Source: Shigella phage ESh25. From it: DNA of 64,000 nt. Where the stretch lies: sequence record ON528735; one strand, written 5' to 3'. Positions 16,446 through 25,400 of the stretch are shown in pieces. Positions within the stretch are counted from its first letter, which is position 1, and the number at the start of each line of letters is the position of its first letter. Both the position numbers and the translations under genes were made by a program. The notes under the pieces are model-generated. The model did not search any database. It saw only the letters and a program-made list of their open reading frames with translations, and was not told where the DNA came from.

Positions 16446-16498
16446 CCTCATGTTATGTCAGTAAGATTACTATAACACAACACGAGGGACTTGTAAAC
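16446..16498 (-). repeat. 53-bp dispersed repeat, copy 1 (promoter-leader cassette)
   Basis: cctcatgttatgtcagtaaga(t)tactataacacaacacgagggacttgtaaac; second copy at 31770-31822 differs at one base. Confidence 0.7.
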
Positions 16499-16500
16499 TA
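16465..16500 (-). promoter_or_regulatory. Early promoter cassette upstream of alt.-3
   Basis: Minus strand GTTTAC, 18 nt, TATAGT, then leader and GAGGAA RBS; part of a 53-bp repeat. Confidence 0.6.
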
Positions 16501-18555
16501 CATTTTGAACTTTTTAGACATTCCGTTGATGTTAACCAAAGAAGCTAAGATTTGAGAAACTTCGCTTTCCTCTTCTTTTGATTCTTCTACAAGGAATTGA
16601 TTAAATCCAGCCATTGGACGAAATTCACCAGTTTCCATTAGATGGTCGCCATCATATACTGATTCTTCTAATTGTTCAGAAGGAGGAACGATTGTACCTT
16701 CGATTAGATACTTATTATAAGCAGTTTCTTTCATAAAGTAAGTACTTACTTTATTAATCTTCAGTAAAATTCCACGTGGTAGAATAACTTCAGCTTCTGA
16801 TGGAAATCCTGACAAATGACCTGGAACGATAACTTTAACTCGTTCAGCTCCTTTAATTACCATACCCACGCTAGTTTCTGCATCTTCATTAGCATATGTA
16901 GAATGACTACCCATATGCATCAAATCTTCTGCATCAACGGAACCTTCTCCTTCACCAGAAAATACTGCGCCGGAATCATCTAGAGCCATATAGTTTTTAC
17001 CATGCTCACCGAAGATATTTGGTTTAAGCGATGTGGATACGAAGTTCTTGAAATAGAACATTTTGTTTTCAATGTTATGACGCAAAGTTTTAAATGTAAC
17101 TTCTTGTCCACGGTAAAGTGTAGTTCCTGGAGGAAGAACTGAACCTTTAGCGAATGCAGAATCAAGCGTCTCGATGTGCTTAATAGCACGTTCCATATAT
17201 TCTTCACGGGTAGAATCCGGTTTACCTAAAAGGAACGAGTTCATTTCAACATATGAATCTGCGCAATAATCTTCAATTACATCAGACTCAGCCTGAGTCA
17301 ATCCTTTTGGAGTTACTTCAGTGCTTGCATATTCATACGCCTGAGCAGCGGATTCATCAATTAATTTATAAATTCCATTCATTACAAATTGAATAATAGC
17401 TGTCTTTTCATCTGGCGTAGCTTTAGAACCTTTAACTAAATCATTGATAATTTTCTTAATAACATCAAAACTATTAGAAATATTAATATCAGCAAGATCG
17501 CTTAAAATTTTATCAGTTTTATAATCAAAGAATTCTTTATTCTTTAAATATTCTTGAGAACCTTGATATGTTATATCGCTCTGCAACTTGATAGATGGAT
17601 CACGTAAACGTGCATGGGCTAATGCAATATGATTTCGGAAGCTTTCTAGTTCATAATCGTTAGATTTAAAACGAGAAGCACTTCTCATACCACCGATAGC
17701 TCCTTTGCTGAAGTTTGAACCAATCTGAATAACGCCAGAGTTCATTGGTCCTTCTGCTTTATATACCGGAACTTTAGATTCAAACTCTTGATATTTCTTA
17801 GCAGCGAAGCTATCACCCTGAAGTGAAGCATCAACAGTAGAATATTGAGCTTGTGCTGCTAATCGACGACTAATTTTAGTTTTCTGAATAACAGCTTGAT
17901 CCGTACGCTTATCATTTTCTAAAGCAATAGAAGCAGCAACTGCGACAGCTTTAGGAACAGCATTACCTGTTTTAACGTCTACATAAACATCACCGACTTT
18001 CGATTCAACTTTTGTGAATAACTCAGTTGAAATAGGAGGTACACCTGGAATGTCTTCTAAATTGGCATTTTTACGGTAAACCATAATATATGCATATTTC
18101 TTATCATAGTCCCAGATTTCCTTTAAAAGAACATATCGACCTGCTCCTTTAGTACGTACTAAACGGTCAGCAATAACTTGCATTTGACGAGCAGCGCCGT
18201 TTGTTTTACTTTTTAGTACGCGGAATAGGCATGCATCAATTTTATACTGTTTCATTGTTTGAAGAGCAGTATCAAAAACCGCATTAATGACACCAATTGG
18301 ATTTCCACCCAAGTTTTTAAGCTTAACTAACGATAATTTCTCGTTGACGCCTATCATTACGATATGCATCATTTTGTCGCCTGGCTTAACGTTTTTATTC
18401 GTATCACCGCCAGAGGTGTATGTACAAAATCGAAATCCAGGAAGAACGCTTTCTTCACCGGCTTGAATAGCAAAAATTTGAGGTATTTTATGCTTAGGAT
18501 TTAAGTTAACAACCGGCGCCGAAGCGCCGTCAAATAATTCTGTAATAAGTTCCAT
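16498..18555 (-). CDS. Alt-like ADP-ribosyltransferase, second full-length paralog
   Basis: 685 aa; N-terminus almost identical to Alt; ART triad elements LYRGQ, FVSTSL, AEVILPRG. Confidence 0.85.
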   Translation of the reverse strand: MELITELFDGASAPVVNLNPKHKIPQIFAIQAGEESVLPGFRFCTYTSGGDTNKNVKPGDKMMHIVMIGVNEKLSLVKLKNLGGNPIGVINAVFDTALQTMKQYKIDACLFRVLKSKTNGAARQMQVIADRLVRTKGAGRYVLLKEIWDYDKKYAYIMVYRKNANLEDIPGVPPISTELFTKVESKVGDVYVDVKTGNAVPKAVAVAASIALENDKRTDQAVIQKTKISRRLAAQAQYSTVDASLQGDSFAAKKYQEFESKVPVYKAEGPMNSGVIQIGSNFSKGAIGGMRSASRFKSNDYELESFRNHIALAHARLRDPSIKLQSDITYQGSQEYLKNKEFFDYKTDKILSDLADINISNSFDVIKKIINDLVKGSKATPDEKTAIIQFVMNGIYKLIDESAAQAYEYASTEVTPKGLTQAESDVIEDYCADSYVEMNSFLLGKPDSTREEYMERAIKHIETLDSAFAKGSVLPPGTTLYRGQEVTFKTLRHNIENKMFYFKNFVSTSLKPNIFGEHGKNYMALDDSGAVFSGEGEGSVDAEDLMHMGSHSTYANEDAETSVGMVIKGAERVKVIVPGHLSGFPSEAEVILPRGILLKINKVSTYFMKETAYNKYLIEGTIVPPSEQLEESVYDGDHLMETGEFRPMAGFNQFLVEESKEEESEVSQILASLVNINGMSKKFKM

Positions 18556-18558
18556 GAT

Positions 18559-20655
18559 TTATCCTTGAACGAACTTGTAAGGCATGTTTGTAATATCTAT
18601 GCAAGACGCAATAATTCCAAGAGATGATTCTACTTTCTGTTTAACGTTTGATGAAACAAATGATGCAAAGTCAACTCTGTCTTCTATTTCAATATCACCT
18701 GTCATTGCAACTACTTCACCGGTTTCCATTAAATGGTCTCCGTCATAGATTACCGATTCGGTGAGCTCTTCCGTGGTCATAACTTCAGCTTGAATGAGTT
18801 TTGTATTATTAGATGTTGTTCCGTCATTATTAGAAGCATCAGTTATTTTATTAACTTTGACCATCAATCCACGCGGTAGAATAACTTCAGCTTCTGTTGC
18901 TATTCCGAGACTTCCTGGATATACAACATTAACTTTATGAGCTCCATCAATTGCCCATCCTATTTGAACTTTAACGTATTCAGGATTTTCTTTATACGCT
19001 CTTATTTCGTTTGGATTAATAGTTATTCCTTCTTCATTTTTATCAACTGTTAATTCATTGCGAGCTTCTGGTTCTAAAAGACCAATACCAGCATGTGTGA
19101 TTCCAAAACGTCCAAAAATGATAGGAGTTAAAGAAGTAGATACAAAATTTCTGAAGTAGAACACTTTATTTTTAACTAACGCTTCATATATAGGAGCAGT
19201 CATACTTTGAGCACGATAAACTGTAATGCCTTCTGGTATACGGTCACCATTTTCAAAAGCTGAATCTAAGTTATTTATAGCAGATTCAATTTCTTTTTCA
19301 CTCATTACATCATATCGTTCTGGATTGTAGCGGCCTAAAAGAAGATTATTGATGTCAGTATATCCTGAACCGCAATATTCTCTAATGCCACGCTTTTGCG
19401 ATGGAGTATATTTAGAACCATCACGGGCAATAGTAATATCAATCATTGGACCTGCACCAATTCCGGAAAAGCTATAAATCATTCGTTTGAGGAATTTAGT
19501 TTTTGCTGCGTTCCAAGAATTTTTAGTTATTTCTTCCCAGACTTCATCTGGCTGCCCTTTACGAGTTTTATTATGTTTATCAAGCCAATTATCTTTATAT
19601 TCTTCAAAGAATTGATTAACAGCTGCTGCGTATTTCTCTAAACATTTTATTGAAGTAGTTGGTTCATTTTTAATCGCATTAAGAATTACATCTTTAATTT
19701 TTTCAGAAACTTCATTAACCTCACTTTTTGAAAAGAATTTATAGTCATAGTGAAGTTCATCTGCAGTTCCTTCGGCAATAATTTTTGCTGCCTTAGTTTT
19801 AGAAGCTAATGAATTAATTCCAAGCTTCATTTCTTCTGCTTCGGGAATTAAAGGAGCGGTAGCAGGTTTATTAAAATTAGCTGCTGTAGATTCATACTTC
19901 TGGAATAATTCACTTTCAAATCTAGAAGATTCCAATGATTGACTTTGCGCAATTGCTCTACGGGAAATTTTAACTTTAACGATTACAGCTTGGTCAGAAC
20001 GTTTATCATTTTCTTGTGCAATAGATGCTGCAATTGCCTCATTTTTAGTTACTTGAGCTCCAGTATCTTTATTGATATAAACATCACCAACCTTCGATTC
20101 AACTTTAGTAAAGAGCTCGGTACTAATTTCAGGAACTCCTGGAATGTCTTCTAATGATACGTTTTTGCGATGTATAAGAATATATGCATACTTTTTATCG
20201 TAATCCCAGAGTTCCTTAAGAAGGACGTATCTGCCACCTGAACGACTACGGATAAGTCTATCAGCAATAACTTGAATTTGTCGAGCTTGGCCAGCAGTTT
20301 TAGACTTAAGAATACGAAGCATACAAGCATCAATTTTATATTGACGCATTGTTTGCATTGCAACAGTAAAAACTGAATTGATATAATTAATTGGGCTTGG
20401 ACCAAGACCTTTTAATTTAGCAATTGAACCTTTAGCAGTTAATGTAAAAGGAACAATATGCATCATTTTATCGCCCATCTTTAAATCACGATTAGTATCA
20501 CCTCCAGATGTATAGGTACATAAACGAAAGCCTGGTTGTTCAATTGCATCATCAACATGAACTGAAAAAATTTGCGGTATTTTCTTCTTTGGATTTAAGT
20601 TTGTAATCGGAAGAGTAGTATCTTCGTCAAATAATTCTGTAATAAGTTCCATCAT
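18559..20655 (-). CDS. alt: Alt ADP-ribosyltransferase (injected internal head protein)
   Basis: 698 aa; ART R-S-E elements VYRAQ, FVSTSL, AEVILPRG; position next to gene 30 as in T4. Confidence 0.85.
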   Translation of the reverse strand: MMELITELFDEDTTLPITNLNPKKKIPQIFSVHVDDAIEQPGFRLCTYTSGGDTNRDLKMGDKMMHIVPFTLTAKGSIAKLKGLGPSPINYINSVFTVAMQTMRQYKIDACMLRILKSKTAGQARQIQVIADRLIRSRSGGRYVLLKELWDYDKKYAYILIHRKNVSLEDIPGVPEISTELFTKVESKVGDVYINKDTGAQVTKNEAIAASIAQENDKRSDQAVIVKVKISRRAIAQSQSLESSRFESELFQKYESTAANFNKPATAPLIPEAEEMKLGINSLASKTKAAKIIAEGTADELHYDYKFFSKSEVNEVSEKIKDVILNAIKNEPTTSIKCLEKYAAAVNQFFEEYKDNWLDKHNKTRKGQPDEVWEEITKNSWNAAKTKFLKRMIYSFSGIGAGPMIDITIARDGSKYTPSQKRGIREYCGSGYTDINNLLLGRYNPERYDVMSEKEIESAINNLDSAFENGDRIPEGITVYRAQSMTAPIYEALVKNKVFYFRNFVSTSLTPIIFGRFGITHAGIGLLEPEARNELTVDKNEEGITINPNEIRAYKENPEYVKVQIGWAIDGAHKVNVVYPGSLGIATEAEVILPRGLMVKVNKITDASNNDGTTSNNTKLIQAEVMTTEELTESVIYDGDHLMETGEVVAMTGDIEIEDRVDFASFVSSNVKQKVESSLGIIASCIDITNMPYKFVQG

Positions 20656-20683: not shown

Positions 20684-20706
20684 AAATTAAAGGCCCGAAG
20701 GCCTTT
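20684..20706 (-). terminator. Hairpin/terminator upstream of alt
   Basis: aaggcc-cgaa-ggcctt hairpin with T-rich flank on the minus strand. Confidence 0.45.
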
Positions 20707-20893
20707 AGTAATCTAGTGGTAAGAGAGTACGATATATTTCAAACTTTGGTCCTTTTTCATAGGCATCAAATGTTTCTGTAAATTTATTATAAGCGTATGC
20801 ATCTACAAATTCGAGAATGACTTGTGATACAGAAGTAGAAACATCTCCACCTTCTTTTTGAGCAATGACAATTGTTTCTAAGTAAGCTTTCAT
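20705..20893 (-). CDS. Hypothetical small protein
   Basis: 62 aa ORF; start overlaps the ligase stop. Confidence 0.5.
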   Translation of the reverse strand: MKAYLETIVIAQKEGGDVSTSVSQVILEFVDAYAYNKFTETFDAYEKGPKFEIYRTLLPLDY

Positions 20894-22353
20894 AAACCAG
20901 TTACCTCATGAAAATCACCAAATACATCCTCGAATGTATTAGCTTTAGTTTTATCTTCACGTAAACGAATCGCAATCGGAAGAAATAATTTAACGTAATC
21001 AGTGCGGCCATCAGATTTTAACCAACCGTTGCATTCGCACTCTAGAATTTTTCCAATATAATAATTTTGGTTTTCCATAATGCGAGTACGGTCAAGTTCA
21101 TGTGATTTTACGCCGGCTTTGTCTTTTAAGCCTGAACCAGCATTTACCTTAATTTTTCCACACTCTGACTCAAGAATAAATCCACCCGCTTTAGTAGGGT
21201 CTTTACGGTGAGGATAAATTCCTACAATTTTTAAATCAACATCAATTACTTCTTTAAATTTATAAAGATTTTTTGAACGAGCATTTTCCCATAATCCATC
21301 GATATTTTTGAGAATAATACCTTCAAGACCTTGGTCAATATACTTTTTATAAATTACCTTAGCTTCATCTAGGTTATTTACTACCTGGTTTTCAATTAAA
21401 ATTACTTTATCATAACCTGATGTCATTTGTTCTAGTTTAGAAAAACGTACATCATATTTCAAACGAAATGCAGGAAGACCGTATATTTCTACCAACGGGA
21501 CATAATCCCAAACCTGAAACTTCATGCATTGAGCTTCTTTTTCAGAAATGGTTCCTTTTAAGGATTTATTGGCGATTCCATTAGAAGTAGTACGAGATTC
21601 CGCTACTTCGGCGAATTCTTTAGCTTTACTAATTTCAGGATAAGCATTAAAAAGAAAATCTAGGCCTTCTGGTTCCTTTTTAACTTGCTCATGGTATACC
21701 AATTCGCCATCAATTAACACACCTTCTGGATGAATCTGGCGGGCTTCAGCAGTCATTTTGATTAACTCTTCCTTAAGAAGATCTAATCCTAGATATTCAT
21801 TACCAGCTCGTGATAAAAGACGAACATCATCTAATTCATCGCCTCGGACTTCAGCAAAACACCGGGCTCCATCTGCTTTTAACTGCGCAAAGGCTGGAAA
21901 CTTGATATTCTTACTAATGCCCTTTTCATCATAAGAACTTGCCAGCATTTGAGGTTGTTCAGGAATTAAACCTGGCCAAACTTTGTTTGCAATAGATACT
22001 GAAGCACCGCATTCAAGGTCTCGCATCATCACTCGACGCAAAACTTCAACATCATCCTTTTTACCATCAGTGATATATCCAGTTAATTCCTCAATTGCAG
22101 CATTTCCAGTCAATTTCCGAGTAGCTAACGTGAATTCAATGAAATCAAGCATATCGGTAATGGTCAGCATTCCAAAACTCTGGGTAGCAATACCAGGTTT
22201 AGGCCATTTCTTGATATAATACTGTAACCCACGAGAATAAGTCAGACGATATACTCGTTTAAGCAATTCATTATCTTTATTCTTTTCAAGAATTGCTTGC
22301 TTCTGCTTAGTTGATCCAATAGATGCTATTTCATTCAGAATTTTAAGAATCAT
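20890..22353 (-). CDS. 30: ATP-dependent DNA ligase gp30
   Basis: 487 aa as T4 ligase; adenylation motif AQLKADGARC. Confidence 0.95.
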   Translation of the reverse strand: MILKILNEIASIGSTKQKQAILEKNKDNELLKRVYRLTYSRGLQYYIKKWPKPGIATQSFGMLTITDMLDFIEFTLATRKLTGNAAIEELTGYITDGKKDDVEVLRRVMMRDLECGASVSIANKVWPGLIPEQPQMLASSYDEKGISKNIKFPAFAQLKADGARCFAEVRGDELDDVRLLSRAGNEYLGLDLLKEELIKMTAEARQIHPEGVLIDGELVYHEQVKKEPEGLDFLFNAYPEISKAKEFAEVAESRTTSNGIANKSLKGTISEKEAQCMKFQVWDYVPLVEIYGLPAFRLKYDVRFSKLEQMTSGYDKVILIENQVVNNLDEAKVIYKKYIDQGLEGIILKNIDGLWENARSKNLYKFKEVIDVDLKIVGIYPHRKDPTKAGGFILESECGKIKVNAGSGLKDKAGVKSHELDRTRIMENQNYYIGKILECECNGWLKSDGRTDYVKLFLPIAIRLREDKTKANTFEDVFGDFHEVTGL

Positions 22354-22619
22354 TGTTCATCCTTCAGAGTTTGATTTACAGCTCTATTATAAATCAATTC
22401 ATCATTAAGCTCAGTTAAAGACCTATGATATGTAGTTCTAACTTTATTTCCTTGCATCCAGTGCTTGATATAAATGAAACCTTGCTCTACACATTTTTTA
22501 AAAATTCGTTCGTCTTTTTGAGCTCGGAATTCTGGATTGCATCTAAAGAATTGATTTACGTGACCGTAATCACGCGTAGTATTACCTTCATTTTCATAAA
22601 TAGTGTGAACGACAAACAT
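22350..22619 (-). CDS. Hypothetical protein (30.1 position)
   Basis: 89 aa; overlaps the gene 30 start. Confidence 0.6.
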   Translation of the reverse strand: MFVVHTIYENEGNTTRDYGHVNQFFRCNPEFRAQKDERIFKKCVEQGFIYIKHWMQGNKVRTTYHRSLTELNDELIYNRAVNQTLKDEQ

Positions 22620-23458
22620 TAGAATGCTCCTTGGAAAATATTATCACCACAAGTAGGTCTATTATACAAATACTCTATGCCACCAGGTTTAATATAGTTC
22701 CATGTCTGAAACGGATGTGTCTGATATGGATGATATAGATGATTATAAGGATTAAACCCAGGAGTTCTCCAGGTAGTGTTCCAAGGAAAAGAATCATTTT
22801 TAATCATCTTTTCAATTACATCTTTTATAGCTTTTTCACTATCAAAACTTTCTTTATTTTCCTTCGGTGAAAAAAGTTTATTTTCTACATCATTCCATGT
22901 ATAAACTCGCTGCGCAGTTTTTGGAATATTGTCACGCTCTCCTCGAGCCATCCAATAAACAGGAACATTTAATATTTCACTCGCATGATCGCAATGATGC
23001 GCGAGATCGTCAATATAACAAATTACGTTATATTTCTCTTTTGCCTTTTTGAACAACTCTTCTTTTGAAGAATCATGACCACACATCAATACTTCTGAGA
23101 AGGCACCAGGAAAAAGAGCATTCAAATTAAATTGACGATTTAGCAGAGCGTCAATAGAATCACCCAATGCTGTAACAGCTACAAAATTATAATCTTCTTT
23201 TAATTTGTTAATTACACACAGGGCATCTTTATACGGAGACAAATAGCGAATAAAATCTGAACGATTATACTTTTCGATTAATTTAACACCAAGTTCTTCA
23301 TCGCAATTAAAGAGCTTACCAGGAGAAATAAATTTTTCGTCCTGAATCATTTTTAAAATATGTTCCAACGGAAGATTATATTTTTGGGCAAAATAAGGAA
23401 GACCTGATTGCCAGCTTAAACATACACCATCAATATCAGTCAAAATAGTAGGCTTCAT
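22619..23458 (-). CDS. HAD-superfamily-like putative phosphatase/nucleotidase (30.2 position)
   Basis: 279 aa; N-terminal LTDIDGV matches HAD motif I (DxDGx). Confidence 0.65.
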   Translation of the reverse strand: MKPTILTDIDGVCLSWQSGLPYFAQKYNLPLEHILKMIQDEKFISPGKLFNCDEELGVKLIEKYNRSDFIRYLSPYKDALCVINKLKEDYNFVAVTALGDSIDALLNRQFNLNALFPGAFSEVLMCGHDSSKEELFKKAKEKYNVICYIDDLAHHCDHASEILNVPVYWMARGERDNIPKTAQRVYTWNDVENKLFSPKENKESFDSEKAIKDVIEKMIKNDSFPWNTTWRTPGFNPYNHLYHPYQTHPFQTWNYIKPGGIEYLYNRPTCGDNIFQGAF

Positions 23459-23919
23459 AGAGAGTCTCTTAATAGGTTTAACACATCAATAAATTCAGCT
23501 TCGGTTAGTATTGTATCATCTTTTGTTAGACTACTAGCCATGCTGTGCTTCAAAACTTTTCCTTTCGAGGCTTGTAATGCATCACGAAAGCCCTTGTTTT
23601 GAATCGCTGCCTCAAAATACGCATTTGTGTATAATTCTTTCCACGCTGTAGAGTATCTTGAAAACGGAACTCCGAGCCAGAAGAGGGTCCCACGGTCCTG
23701 AGCTCTAGCATAAGACCTTCCAGCTTGTTGGGCGGCAAGCCCGGATAACCCAAATACACGACGCTGCTGTTCAACATTTTTCACCTTACATCCTTGGAGG
23801 AATCCTTCGAGACCTCCAAATTGGATACCATCCATAACAAAAGGCCATTGGGCGAAATTACTTAATGCGCATGATGGCCATTTAAAATTGCTTCTAATCT
23901 CTAACTCAGACATTTTCAA
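23455..23919 (-). CDS. NADAR/YbiA-like domain protein (30.3 position)
   Basis: 154 aa; SNFAQWPF resembles the conserved NADAR (DUF1768) segment of E. coli YbiA. Confidence 0.7.
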   Translation of the reverse strand: MKMSELEIRSNFKWPSCALSNFAQWPFVMDGIQFGGLEGFLQGCKVKNVEQQRRVFGLSGLAAQQAGRSYARAQDRGTLFWLGVPFSRYSTAWKELYTNAYFEAAIQNKGFRDALQASKGKVLKHSMASSLTKDDTILTEAEFIDVLNLLRDSL

Positions 23920-24112
23920 TACTTATAATTTCAACATCAGCCCAATGACCATAGCAAGGAAGACGAAATTCAACTGGCCAGTTAGGGTCCTTTTCTAATA
24001 TAATAGACTGAACTTGTGGCTCTTCATATTCATCGGTATACGGACCTTTATACGTTACTTTATATGTGACCTTAATATACTGAATTCCAAAAATCTTATT
24101 AATTATATTCAT
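23906..24112 (-). CDS. Hypothetical protein (30.4 position)
   Basis: 68 aa ORF in the co-directional cluster. Confidence 0.55.
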   Translation of the reverse strand: MNIINKIFGIQYIKVTYKVTYKGPYTDEYEEPQVQSIILEKDPNWPVEFRLPCYGHWADVEIISIENV

Positions 24113-25068: not shown

Positions 25069-25400
25069 TATTTTACTACTTTCCAGTGCTTCATGTCAAG
25101 TTTACCAACTTTTTTCATCTTCTCAATTAAGCGTTCGGCACGTTGGCGAGCTGTAACATAATACCATTCGCCTAATTCATTTTGTTCAATTTTTCCAACG
25201 ATTACTGTATTCAATTCATAAATCCAACCAGTAAAGAAATTATGAACTTGAATTGTAAAGGTGAAATCTGTTCCCATACCTTCTGTTGTTTCTACTTCAA
25301 TAATATCACCTTCAACTGCCATTAAGAACCACATAGTTTCATCATATTTACCATTGAAGCATTTAGTTTTAACTGTAGCGTTCAGATTAATCGTTTTCAT
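25068..25400 (-). CDS. Hypothetical protein (30.8 position)
   Basis: 110 aa; early promoter immediately upstream. Confidence 0.6.
   Translation of the reverse strand: MKTINLNATVKTKCFNGKYDETMWFLMAVEGDIIEVETTEGMGTDFTFTIQVHNFFTGWIYELNTVIVGKIEQNELGEWYYVTARQRAERLIEKMKKVGKLDMKHWKVVK

Follow-up and report, generated by a model that had tools for sequence, protein, structure and literature searches.

Shigella phage ESh25 (sequence record ON528735) carries two adjacent genes, 30.3 and 30.2, whose products an earlier note took for a NADAR-like ADP-ribose hydrolase and a HAD-like protein. This raises the question of what the two proteins do, on which substrate, and whether they act together with each other or with the Alt ADP-ribosyltransferases encoded nearby. 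We addressed this question computationally in a window of 64,000 nucleotides, the whole stretch of DNA that was analysed. The three open reading frames that the earlier note had listed here, of 154, 279 and 75 aa, are all present on the minus strand. Positions of the genes, of the residues discussed below and of two regulatory motifs are collected in Table 1.

Table 1. Features of the 30.4-alt region in the window and their positions
Feature	Position	Strand	Remark
Two Alt ADP-ribosyltransferase paralogues	18559-20655 and 16498-18555	minus	
Terminator-like hairpin	20688..20707	minus	directly after alt.1; consensus match only
alt.1	20705-20893	minus	
DNA ligase gene 30	20890-22353	minus	
Gene 30.1	22350-22619	minus	
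Gene 30.2, 279 aa	22619..23458	minus	ATG overlaps the 30.3 stop (ATGA, 4 nt)
HAD motif I of gp30.2, D8-I-D10-G-V12	23423..23437	minus	alignment of 26 homologues
Gene 30.3 (adfN), 152 aa	23455..23913	minus	predicted NADAR-fold DNA ADP-ribosylglycohydrolase; ATG start at 23913
Last 15 residues of 30.3 (138-152), C-terminal helix	23458..23502	minus	intact; full-length T4 alignment and model
His123 codon, CAC	23545..23547	minus	last beta-strand; H125 in 154-aa numbering
ORF 30.3', 75 aa	23550..23777	minus	+1 frame within 30.3; annotated in T4; PF11097
Lys43 codon, AAG	23785..23787	minus	putatively catalytic, role from PMC11825919; K45 in 154-aa numbering
Glu36 codon, GAA	23806..23808	minus	putatively catalytic, role from PMC11825919; E38 in 154-aa numbering
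Gene 30.4	23906-24112	minus	
Candidate sigma-70-like promoter	25070..25099	minus	11/12 positions, consensus match only

Gene order in the window is that of the T4 reference record (30.4, 30.3, 30.3', 30.2, 30.1, 30, alt.1, alt), and the wider arrangement is likewise that of T4 (cd...30.9-30.1-30-alt). Over a 1.9-kb region, DNA identity amounts to 97.6% with Shigella phage Sf24 and to 97% with RB51, RB68 and RB14; judged by its sequence, the window is that of a Tequatrovirus. Because transcription runs from right to left, the ligase and alt genes follow genes 30.3 and 30.2, which are thus upstream, not downstream as the earlier note had placed them. Genes 30.4, 30.3, 30.2, 30.1 and 30 form a tightly packed string that is probably co-translated, and between the 30.x-ligase string and the alt genes lies a terminator-like hairpin. 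The best promoter match upstream of 30.7 is a candidate start for a transcript covering 30.7 to 30.3, 30.2, 30.1 and 30; as the scan for sigma-70-like promoters performed at chance level (22 sites found vs 20.2 expected), it supports no firm transcript map.

The 30.3 protein had been described as 154 aa long. An ORF of this length, opening with TTG, does exist (23455..23919), but the TTG at 23919 is merely the first possible start, and translation likely begins at the ATG at 23913, yielding a protein of 152 aa (MSELEI...), because this start agrees with the T4 annotation and with an ungapped 152/152 alignment to the T4 protein. The ATG overlaps the stop codon of 30.4 as ATGTCTGA. Alignment with T4 gp30.3 extends without gaps through L152, with 147 of 152 residues identical (97%), and the C-terminus is complete (...LNLLRDSL). 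The present allele differs from T4 gp30.3/AdfN by five substitutions (R11K, I53V, P89T, I125M and G128S), whereas the two have in common their neighbours (30.4, 30.2, 30.1 and ligase), residues E36, K43 and H123, and the C-terminal helix. Pfam family PF08010 (Phage_30_3) matches the protein along the entire profile (hmmscan, E 2.5e-69, profile positions 1-138/138). The protein is thus very probably an orthologue of T4 gp30.3/AdfN. Homologues of 30.3 and of 30.2 are each found in about 1,450-1,510 phage records, and conservation marks both as real conserved genes rather than chance ORFs. Among 30 rows sampled from the 1,510 public records of phages carrying a homologue, the annotation reads "hypothetical protein" or "GP30.3".

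Membership of 30.3 in the NADAR proteins had been proposed from the string SNFAQWPF, which resembles SNFAAWP in YbiA. Both strings are present, and E. coli YbiA displays FSNFAAWP at the aligned position (HMMER, PDB 2b3w). A Pfam search against PF08719 had further been suggested as a check. This search returned no PF08719 match for 30.3 at E<=1 and PF08010 as the sole match (hmmscan), so that the sequence test put forward by the earlier note would have counted against a correct idea. Scans for NADAR or DarG models in NCBIfam and PADLOC gave no match either, and a first word-indexed homologue search retrieved PF08010 proteins only. Since 30.3 has no PF08719, NCBIfam or PADLOC match, the case for NADAR membership by direct sequence match alone is weak, and with PF08010 as the only family returned by direct profile scans, structure was needed to establish membership.

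Membership rests on the predicted fold, the putative catalytic residues and bridging relatives. The structure model (AF2; pLDDT 84.5, pTM 0.83) places His123 within a predicted strand at 122-125 and contains a predicted C-terminal helix at 140-153 (154-aa numbering, pLDDT ~90). When a ten-member family profile of 30.3 was compared with the PDB, the best match was YbiA (E 0.057), over the pattern SNFA.WP...E..Q..K, and Glu36 aligns with the Glu in the stretch SEHYFQAQK of YbiA. Glu36, Lys43 and His123 are invariant in the family alignment, across relatives down to ~35% identity, and a second alignment of 56 distant relatives finds Glu36 and Lys43 invariant there as well. Longer relatives were drawn from an exhaustive profile search (1,451 representative clusters) and then scanned separately against Pfam; 10 of 56 match both PF08010 and PF08719 (best E 1.2e-6), and a fusion protein at locus L024 matches both families too. 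The 30.3 protein combines a PF08010 match with a His in the last strand, the marks of the phage gp30.3-type NADAR subgroup, and like AdfN it is full length, including the C-terminal helix that is absent from the frameshift allele of RB69. In all likelihood, the protein is a small N-glycohydrolase consisting of a single NADAR domain (YbiA fold).

That this NADAR has an anti-DarTG role, as the earlier note had suspected, is correct but already published, the 97% identical T4 AdfN having been shown to act in this way (PMC11125620, PMC11825919), with assay and knockout experiments of the kind the note had proposed (PMC11125620, PMC11825919). DarTG1 resistance of T2 and T4 was mapped to gene 30.3, and T4 gp30.3 was renamed adfN (PMC11825919). 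Deletion of adfN in T4-GT7 results in a DarTG1-sensitive phage, and purified AdfN strips ADP-ribose from DarT1-modified DNA, whereas DarT1 itself is not bound by AdfN (PMC11825919). In vitro, the T4 enzyme accepts guanosine-ADPr for hydrolysis, whereas thymidine-ADPr is left intact (PMC11125620). RB69 is DarTG1-sensitive, its own allele being truncated by a frameshift and devoid of the C-terminal helix, and its plaquing on DarTG1 hosts is restored by ectopic AdfN (PMC11825919). E36A, K43A and truncated AdfN variants rescue only partially, and the C-terminal helix is required (PMC11825919). Proteins of the gp30.3 type were named "phage NADARs" and have a distinguishing His in their last strand, at the position taken by Glu in the YbiA family and by Asp in the DarT1-linked family (PMC11125620); the phage clade is most closely related to DarG1-like NADARs (PMC11825919). 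T4 AdfN is unable to detoxify DarT1 in uninfected E. coli and hardly rescues non-T-even phages, for which DNA hydroxymethylation or glucosylation is no explanation, and the authors suggest that AdfN needs an additional T-even protein (PMC11125620, PMC11825919). Given the lack of detoxification in uninfected cells and the weak rescue of non-T-even phages, the simple picture of a free-standing antitoxin is therefore incomplete.

Transferred to ESh25, the mechanism would run as follows. DarT1 of the host would ADP-ribosylate guanine in the phage DNA, thereby blocking replication, and AdfN would cut the ribose-guanine bond, so that ADP-ribose is freed, normal DNA is regained and the phage plates on DarTG1 hosts. 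In this way, AdfN would serve the phage as an "orphan antitoxin" in imitation of DarG1. Contacts with the ADP-ribose would come from Glu36 and Lys43, the last-strand His123 may stand in for the Asp or Glu of cellular NADARs, and the C-terminal helix would be needed for full activity. This mechanism has been demonstrated for the T4 protein; that the allele of the present phage works in the same way is highly probable, given 97% identity.

The resemblance to cellular NADARs has clear bounds. DarG1-type NADAR antitoxins (Geobacter lovleyi NADAR, PDB 8bat; E. coli C7 DarG1) share ~12% identity with 30.3, carry Asp in the last strand where 30.3 has His, and are encoded in an operon with DarT1; furthermore, DarT1 toxicity in uninfected cells is relieved by DarG1 but not by AdfN. 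E. coli YbiA (PDB 2b3w, PF08719) has a Glu in the last strand, lies within a LexA-controlled host operon and is also an N-glycosidase of riboflavin intermediates, whereas the 30.3 protein obtains no PF08719 score at all.

An alternative-frame ORF inside 30.3, likewise pointed out in the earlier note, corresponds to the annotated T4 ORF 30.3' (PF11097). A Shine-Dalgarno-like sequence, AAGGTG, precedes its ATG by 5 nt. As a selected overlapping gene, 30.3' was rejected on conservation and substitution patterns. Its identity to T4 is 89% vs 97% for 30.3, and in comparisons where 30.3 is 80-86% identical, 30.3' reaches only 53-57%. The start of 30.3' is lost in L002, and an internal stop interrupts it in L012. 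Within the overlap, 30.3 shows as much synonymous divergence (0.366) as outside it (0.362). Moreover, when the 30.3 protein was recoded with local codon usage in 5,000 simulations, an equally long alternative-frame ORF appeared in 16% (ATG-started) to 28% (stop-free) of them. With its lower identity, its lost start and gained stop, the unreduced synonymous change and a length expected by chance, 30.3' is most plausibly an incidental consequence of the protein sequence that 30.3 encodes; it may still be translated in T4.

The neighbouring gene product, gp30.2, belongs to the HAD superfamily, and this assignment is solid. The string LTDIDGV, which the earlier note had recognised as HAD motif I, occupies residues 6-12, and all four HAD motifs were found. 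Among 26 homologues, down to 35% identity, D8, D10, G11, K132 (motif III) and D150-D151 (motif IV) do not vary, and T96 (motif II) hardly does. A phosphatase-like domain of HAD fold, bearing a C1 cap, spans residues 1 to ~195 and provides the Rossmannoid core and cap domain that characterise HAD proteins, whereas residues ~200-279 are of low confidence or predicted to be disordered, and the length of this tail varies across the family. Near the C-terminal end of many homologues, a short motif recurs (G-I-E-Y-x-x-x-(Q/R)-P-T). The HAD family profile match by which the earlier note wished to confirm the assignment was not obtained, gp30.2 itself being without Pfam or NCBIfam match; its homologues yield weak matches to PF00702 (7/26) and PF06941 NT5C (3/26). 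Gene 30.2 matches phrog_420 (E 3.8e-93) and, weakly, a polynucleotide-kinase PHROG. A single-sequence search of gp30.2 against the PDB returned no match, whereas the family profile gave 5'(3')-deoxyribonucleotidase 2jao as its best PDB match (E 0.018). We tentatively place gp30.2 nearest to the 5'(3')-deoxyribonucleotidase/NT5C branch. From the members of this branch (PF06941; PDB 2jao, 3bwv, 6g2n), it differs in lacking a Pfam match and in adding a disordered tail of ~80 residues. The protein is a predicted HAD phosphatase that looks catalytically competent. A literature search on gp30.2 found nothing relevant.

Against this background, the substrate of the 30.3 enzyme in infection can be weighed. 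The earlier note had combined 30.3 and the Alt proteins into a writer/eraser set and had considered 30.3 as a reverser of self-modification by the phage. Alt is an arginine-specific protein ADP-ribosyltransferase, and two full-length alt genes reside 2.7-7 kb away on the same strand. However, it is extremely unlikely that 30.3 serves to erase the ADP-ribose groups that the phage itself places on host or phage proteins through Alt (or ModA/ModB). Activity of the T4 NADAR was measured on guanine-ADPr in DNA, with none on thymidine-ADPr (PMC11125620), protein de-ADP-ribosylation is unreported in the published AdfN/NADAR work, and DarTG1 fully accounts for the genetic phenotype of adfN. Four genes (30.2, 30.1, ligase and alt.1) and the terminator-like hairpin separate 30.3 from alt, and in the T4-like Acinetobacter phage L028 the ART gene is located on the opposite strand. 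Neither the writer/eraser set nor the reversal of self-modification thus found support, and the proximity of 30.3 and alt is conserved T4 synteny; the closeness of NADAR and ART genes in T4-like phages had already been remarked on by Iyer et al. 2022. From genomic context, the same authors argued for soluble ADPr derivatives as the main targets of phage NADARs, and 30.3 might accordingly degrade soluble ADPr-derived molecules (immune signals or by-products of RNA repair) or, as YbiA does, riboflavin intermediates, its role on DNA being a side activity. Fusion of a gp30.3-type NADAR to KptA/Tpt1 and NT5C, a neighbourhood comprising an ADP-ribosylglycohydrolase and a DSP phosphatase (L024), and the failure of AdfN as an antitoxin in uninfected cells all speak for such soluble targets. 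We nevertheless consider this very unlikely in view of the direct genetic and biochemical tie to DarT1-modified DNA in T-even infection and of the DarG1-like NADARs being closest to the phage clade (PMC11825919).

Removal of ADP-ribose from DarT1-modified phage DNA thus remains the preferred role of AdfN, and the question is whether gp30.2 takes part in it. The two proteins could form a two-step module, in which the NADAR frees ADPr or a phosphorylated derivative and the HAD protein processes this product or prepares the substrate, gp30.2 being the additional T-even protein of AdfN; as a whole, this is unlikely. Decidedly unlikely is its more specific form, in which gp30.2 partners AdfN as the split equivalent of NADAR-NT5C (and KptA-NADAR-NT5C) fusions and the pair removes and disposes of ADPr adducts. 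In favour of a partnership, the 30.3 stop and the 30.2 start overlap by 4 nt (ATGA), and the two genes are adjacent in all T4-like loci sampled, even where the NADARs are only 43-46% identical (L017 and the Acinetobacter phage L028), while L021 has a 30.2-like gene two genes away. Two distant viral contigs (L023 and L024) encode single polypeptides that join a gp30.3-type NADAR to an NT5C-type HAD domain. Both domains occur in 120/120 clusters among the matches listed (of 1,831), some of which add an N- or C-terminal KptA/Tpt1. The nearest HAD relatives of gp30.2 are NT5C-like, and gp30.2 aligns with the fused HAD domain at E 6.5e-5 (hhalign), yet with a probability of only 64% and over 66 columns. 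AdfN reportedly depends on a context specific to T-even phages, and host systems couple HAD 5'-nucleotidases to ADPr-releasing ARG enzymes (PMC9503650). On the other hand, the genes are separable, 30.2 adjoining the ligase gene in the absence of a 30.3-type NADAR in L030 and L031, and 30.3 abutting the ligase gene in the absence of 30.2 in L018. No HAD gene was found within 4 kb at six further NADAR loci, NT5C fusions account for just 2/56 multi-domain representatives, and de-ADP-ribosylation of guanine chemically needs no phosphatase. Rescue of RB69 by ectopic AdfN alone does not discriminate, because RB69 has its own 30.2. The host distributions of 30.2 and 30.3 are nearly identical over the phage records counted above, which fits a functional link and fits equally well both genes being common in Straboviridae. 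A partnership of gp30.2 and AdfN is hence a testable lead with a small chance of holding, and no finding.

Some further observations concern the same genes. NADAR-HAD fusions occur in other viral and gut-bacterial contigs, and the L024 fusion is flanked by genes for a DSP-type phosphatase and an ADP-ribosylglycohydrolase. The ORFs beside 30.2 in L030 and L031 were considered as cryptic NADARs and rejected (hhalign probability <1%).

With regard to 30.3, our analysis is a rediscovery of the published AdfN, whose practical value lies in the annotation of phage records. Two questions follow from the locus: why AdfN works only in T-even infection, and what role its conserved neighbour, the HAD protein gp30.2, plays. 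The NADAR-HAD fusions offer modest and testable grounds for asking whether gp30.2 is the missing partner of AdfN, a weakly supported lead that is absent from the published AdfN/NADAR papers. An answer on the role of gp30.2 could also answer the T-even dependence of AdfN.

The genes 30.3 (NADAR family), 30.2 (HAD-fold phosphatase-like) and DNA ligase form one block, from which either small gene can be absent. In the locus L018 (3908-5756), the ligase is directly adjoined by the NADAR gene without a HAD gene; the converse arrangement, a HAD gene adjacent to or near the ligase without NADAR, is found in L031 (3001-5084) and L030 (922-3591). A gp30.3-type NADAR gene also lies ~1.6 kb downstream of the ligase gene in a distant phage contig (L020:426-2402), whose ligase is NAD-dependent (LigA-type), in contrast to the ATP-dependent enzyme of T4-like phages. 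Homologues of 30.3 are encoded by 1,510 of the 50,697 records in the phage collection. In 30 sampled rows (H26-H55) they are labelled "hypothetical protein" or "GP30.3", and the annotations AdfN or NADAR appear in none of the 30.

Natural disruptions of 30.3 were identified in L014:4001-4345 and in the database proteins P0007, P0012, P0013, P0014 and P0016. The L014 allele lacks the first ~38 residues including the catalytic Glu36, and several database entries are either shortened or represent 30.3/30.3' frameshift chimeras matching both PF08010 and PF11097. These alleles agree with the published frameshift allele of RB69, and sequencing errors could lie behind some of them. The AAGGTG preceding the start codon of the internal ORF 30.3' arises from Cys-Lys-Val-Lys codons of 30.3, and its presence is probably why 30.3' is annotated in T4 as an internal translation product. 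The C-terminal tail of gp30.2 varies in length among homologues, many of which lack it; within it a short motif, G-I-E-Y-x-x-x-(Q/R)-P-T, recurs that may be a docking peptide.

The ligase-proximal Alt copy shares 70% identity with T4 Alt, whereas the second copy is only 41% identical to T4 Alt and to the ligase-proximal copy alike. At the place of this second full-length copy, T4 harbors merely the short remnants alt.-1 and alt.-2.

Coordinates of features in the window and in two viral contigs
Feature	Location	Strand	Remarks
Alt paralogue, full-length	window 16498-18555	-	
Alt paralogue, full-length	window 18559-20655	-	
gp30.2 C-terminal ~80 residues	window 22619-22860		aromatic/Pro-rich, low predicted confidence
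AAGGTG	window 23778-23790	-	5 nt upstream of 30.3' ATG (23777)
NADAR-NT5C fusion	L023:3914-4969		viral contig IMGVR_UViG_3300045988_124782
NADAR-NT5C fusion	L024:3478-4440		viral contig 3300028591_008352
Flank genes of L024 fusion	L024:1533-2903 and L024:4437-5501		456-aa protein with DSP-PTPase "Swiss army knife" phosphatase domain; 354-aa ADP-ribosylglycohydrolase (PF03747, E 3e-67)

In L023 and L024, a gp30.3-type NADAR domain and a C-terminal NT5C/HAD 5'-nucleotidase domain are joined in one protein. This architecture is common to all 120 database clusters among the matches listed (P0123-P0242), several of these fusion proteins originating from Bacteroidaceae or Prevotellaceae MAGs, and a subset of ~503-508 aa additionally carries a KptA/Tpt1 RNA 2'-phosphotransferase domain. 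Together with the DSP-PTPase protein and the ADP-ribosylglycohydrolase, the L024 fusion constitutes a small ADP-ribose-processing gene cluster.
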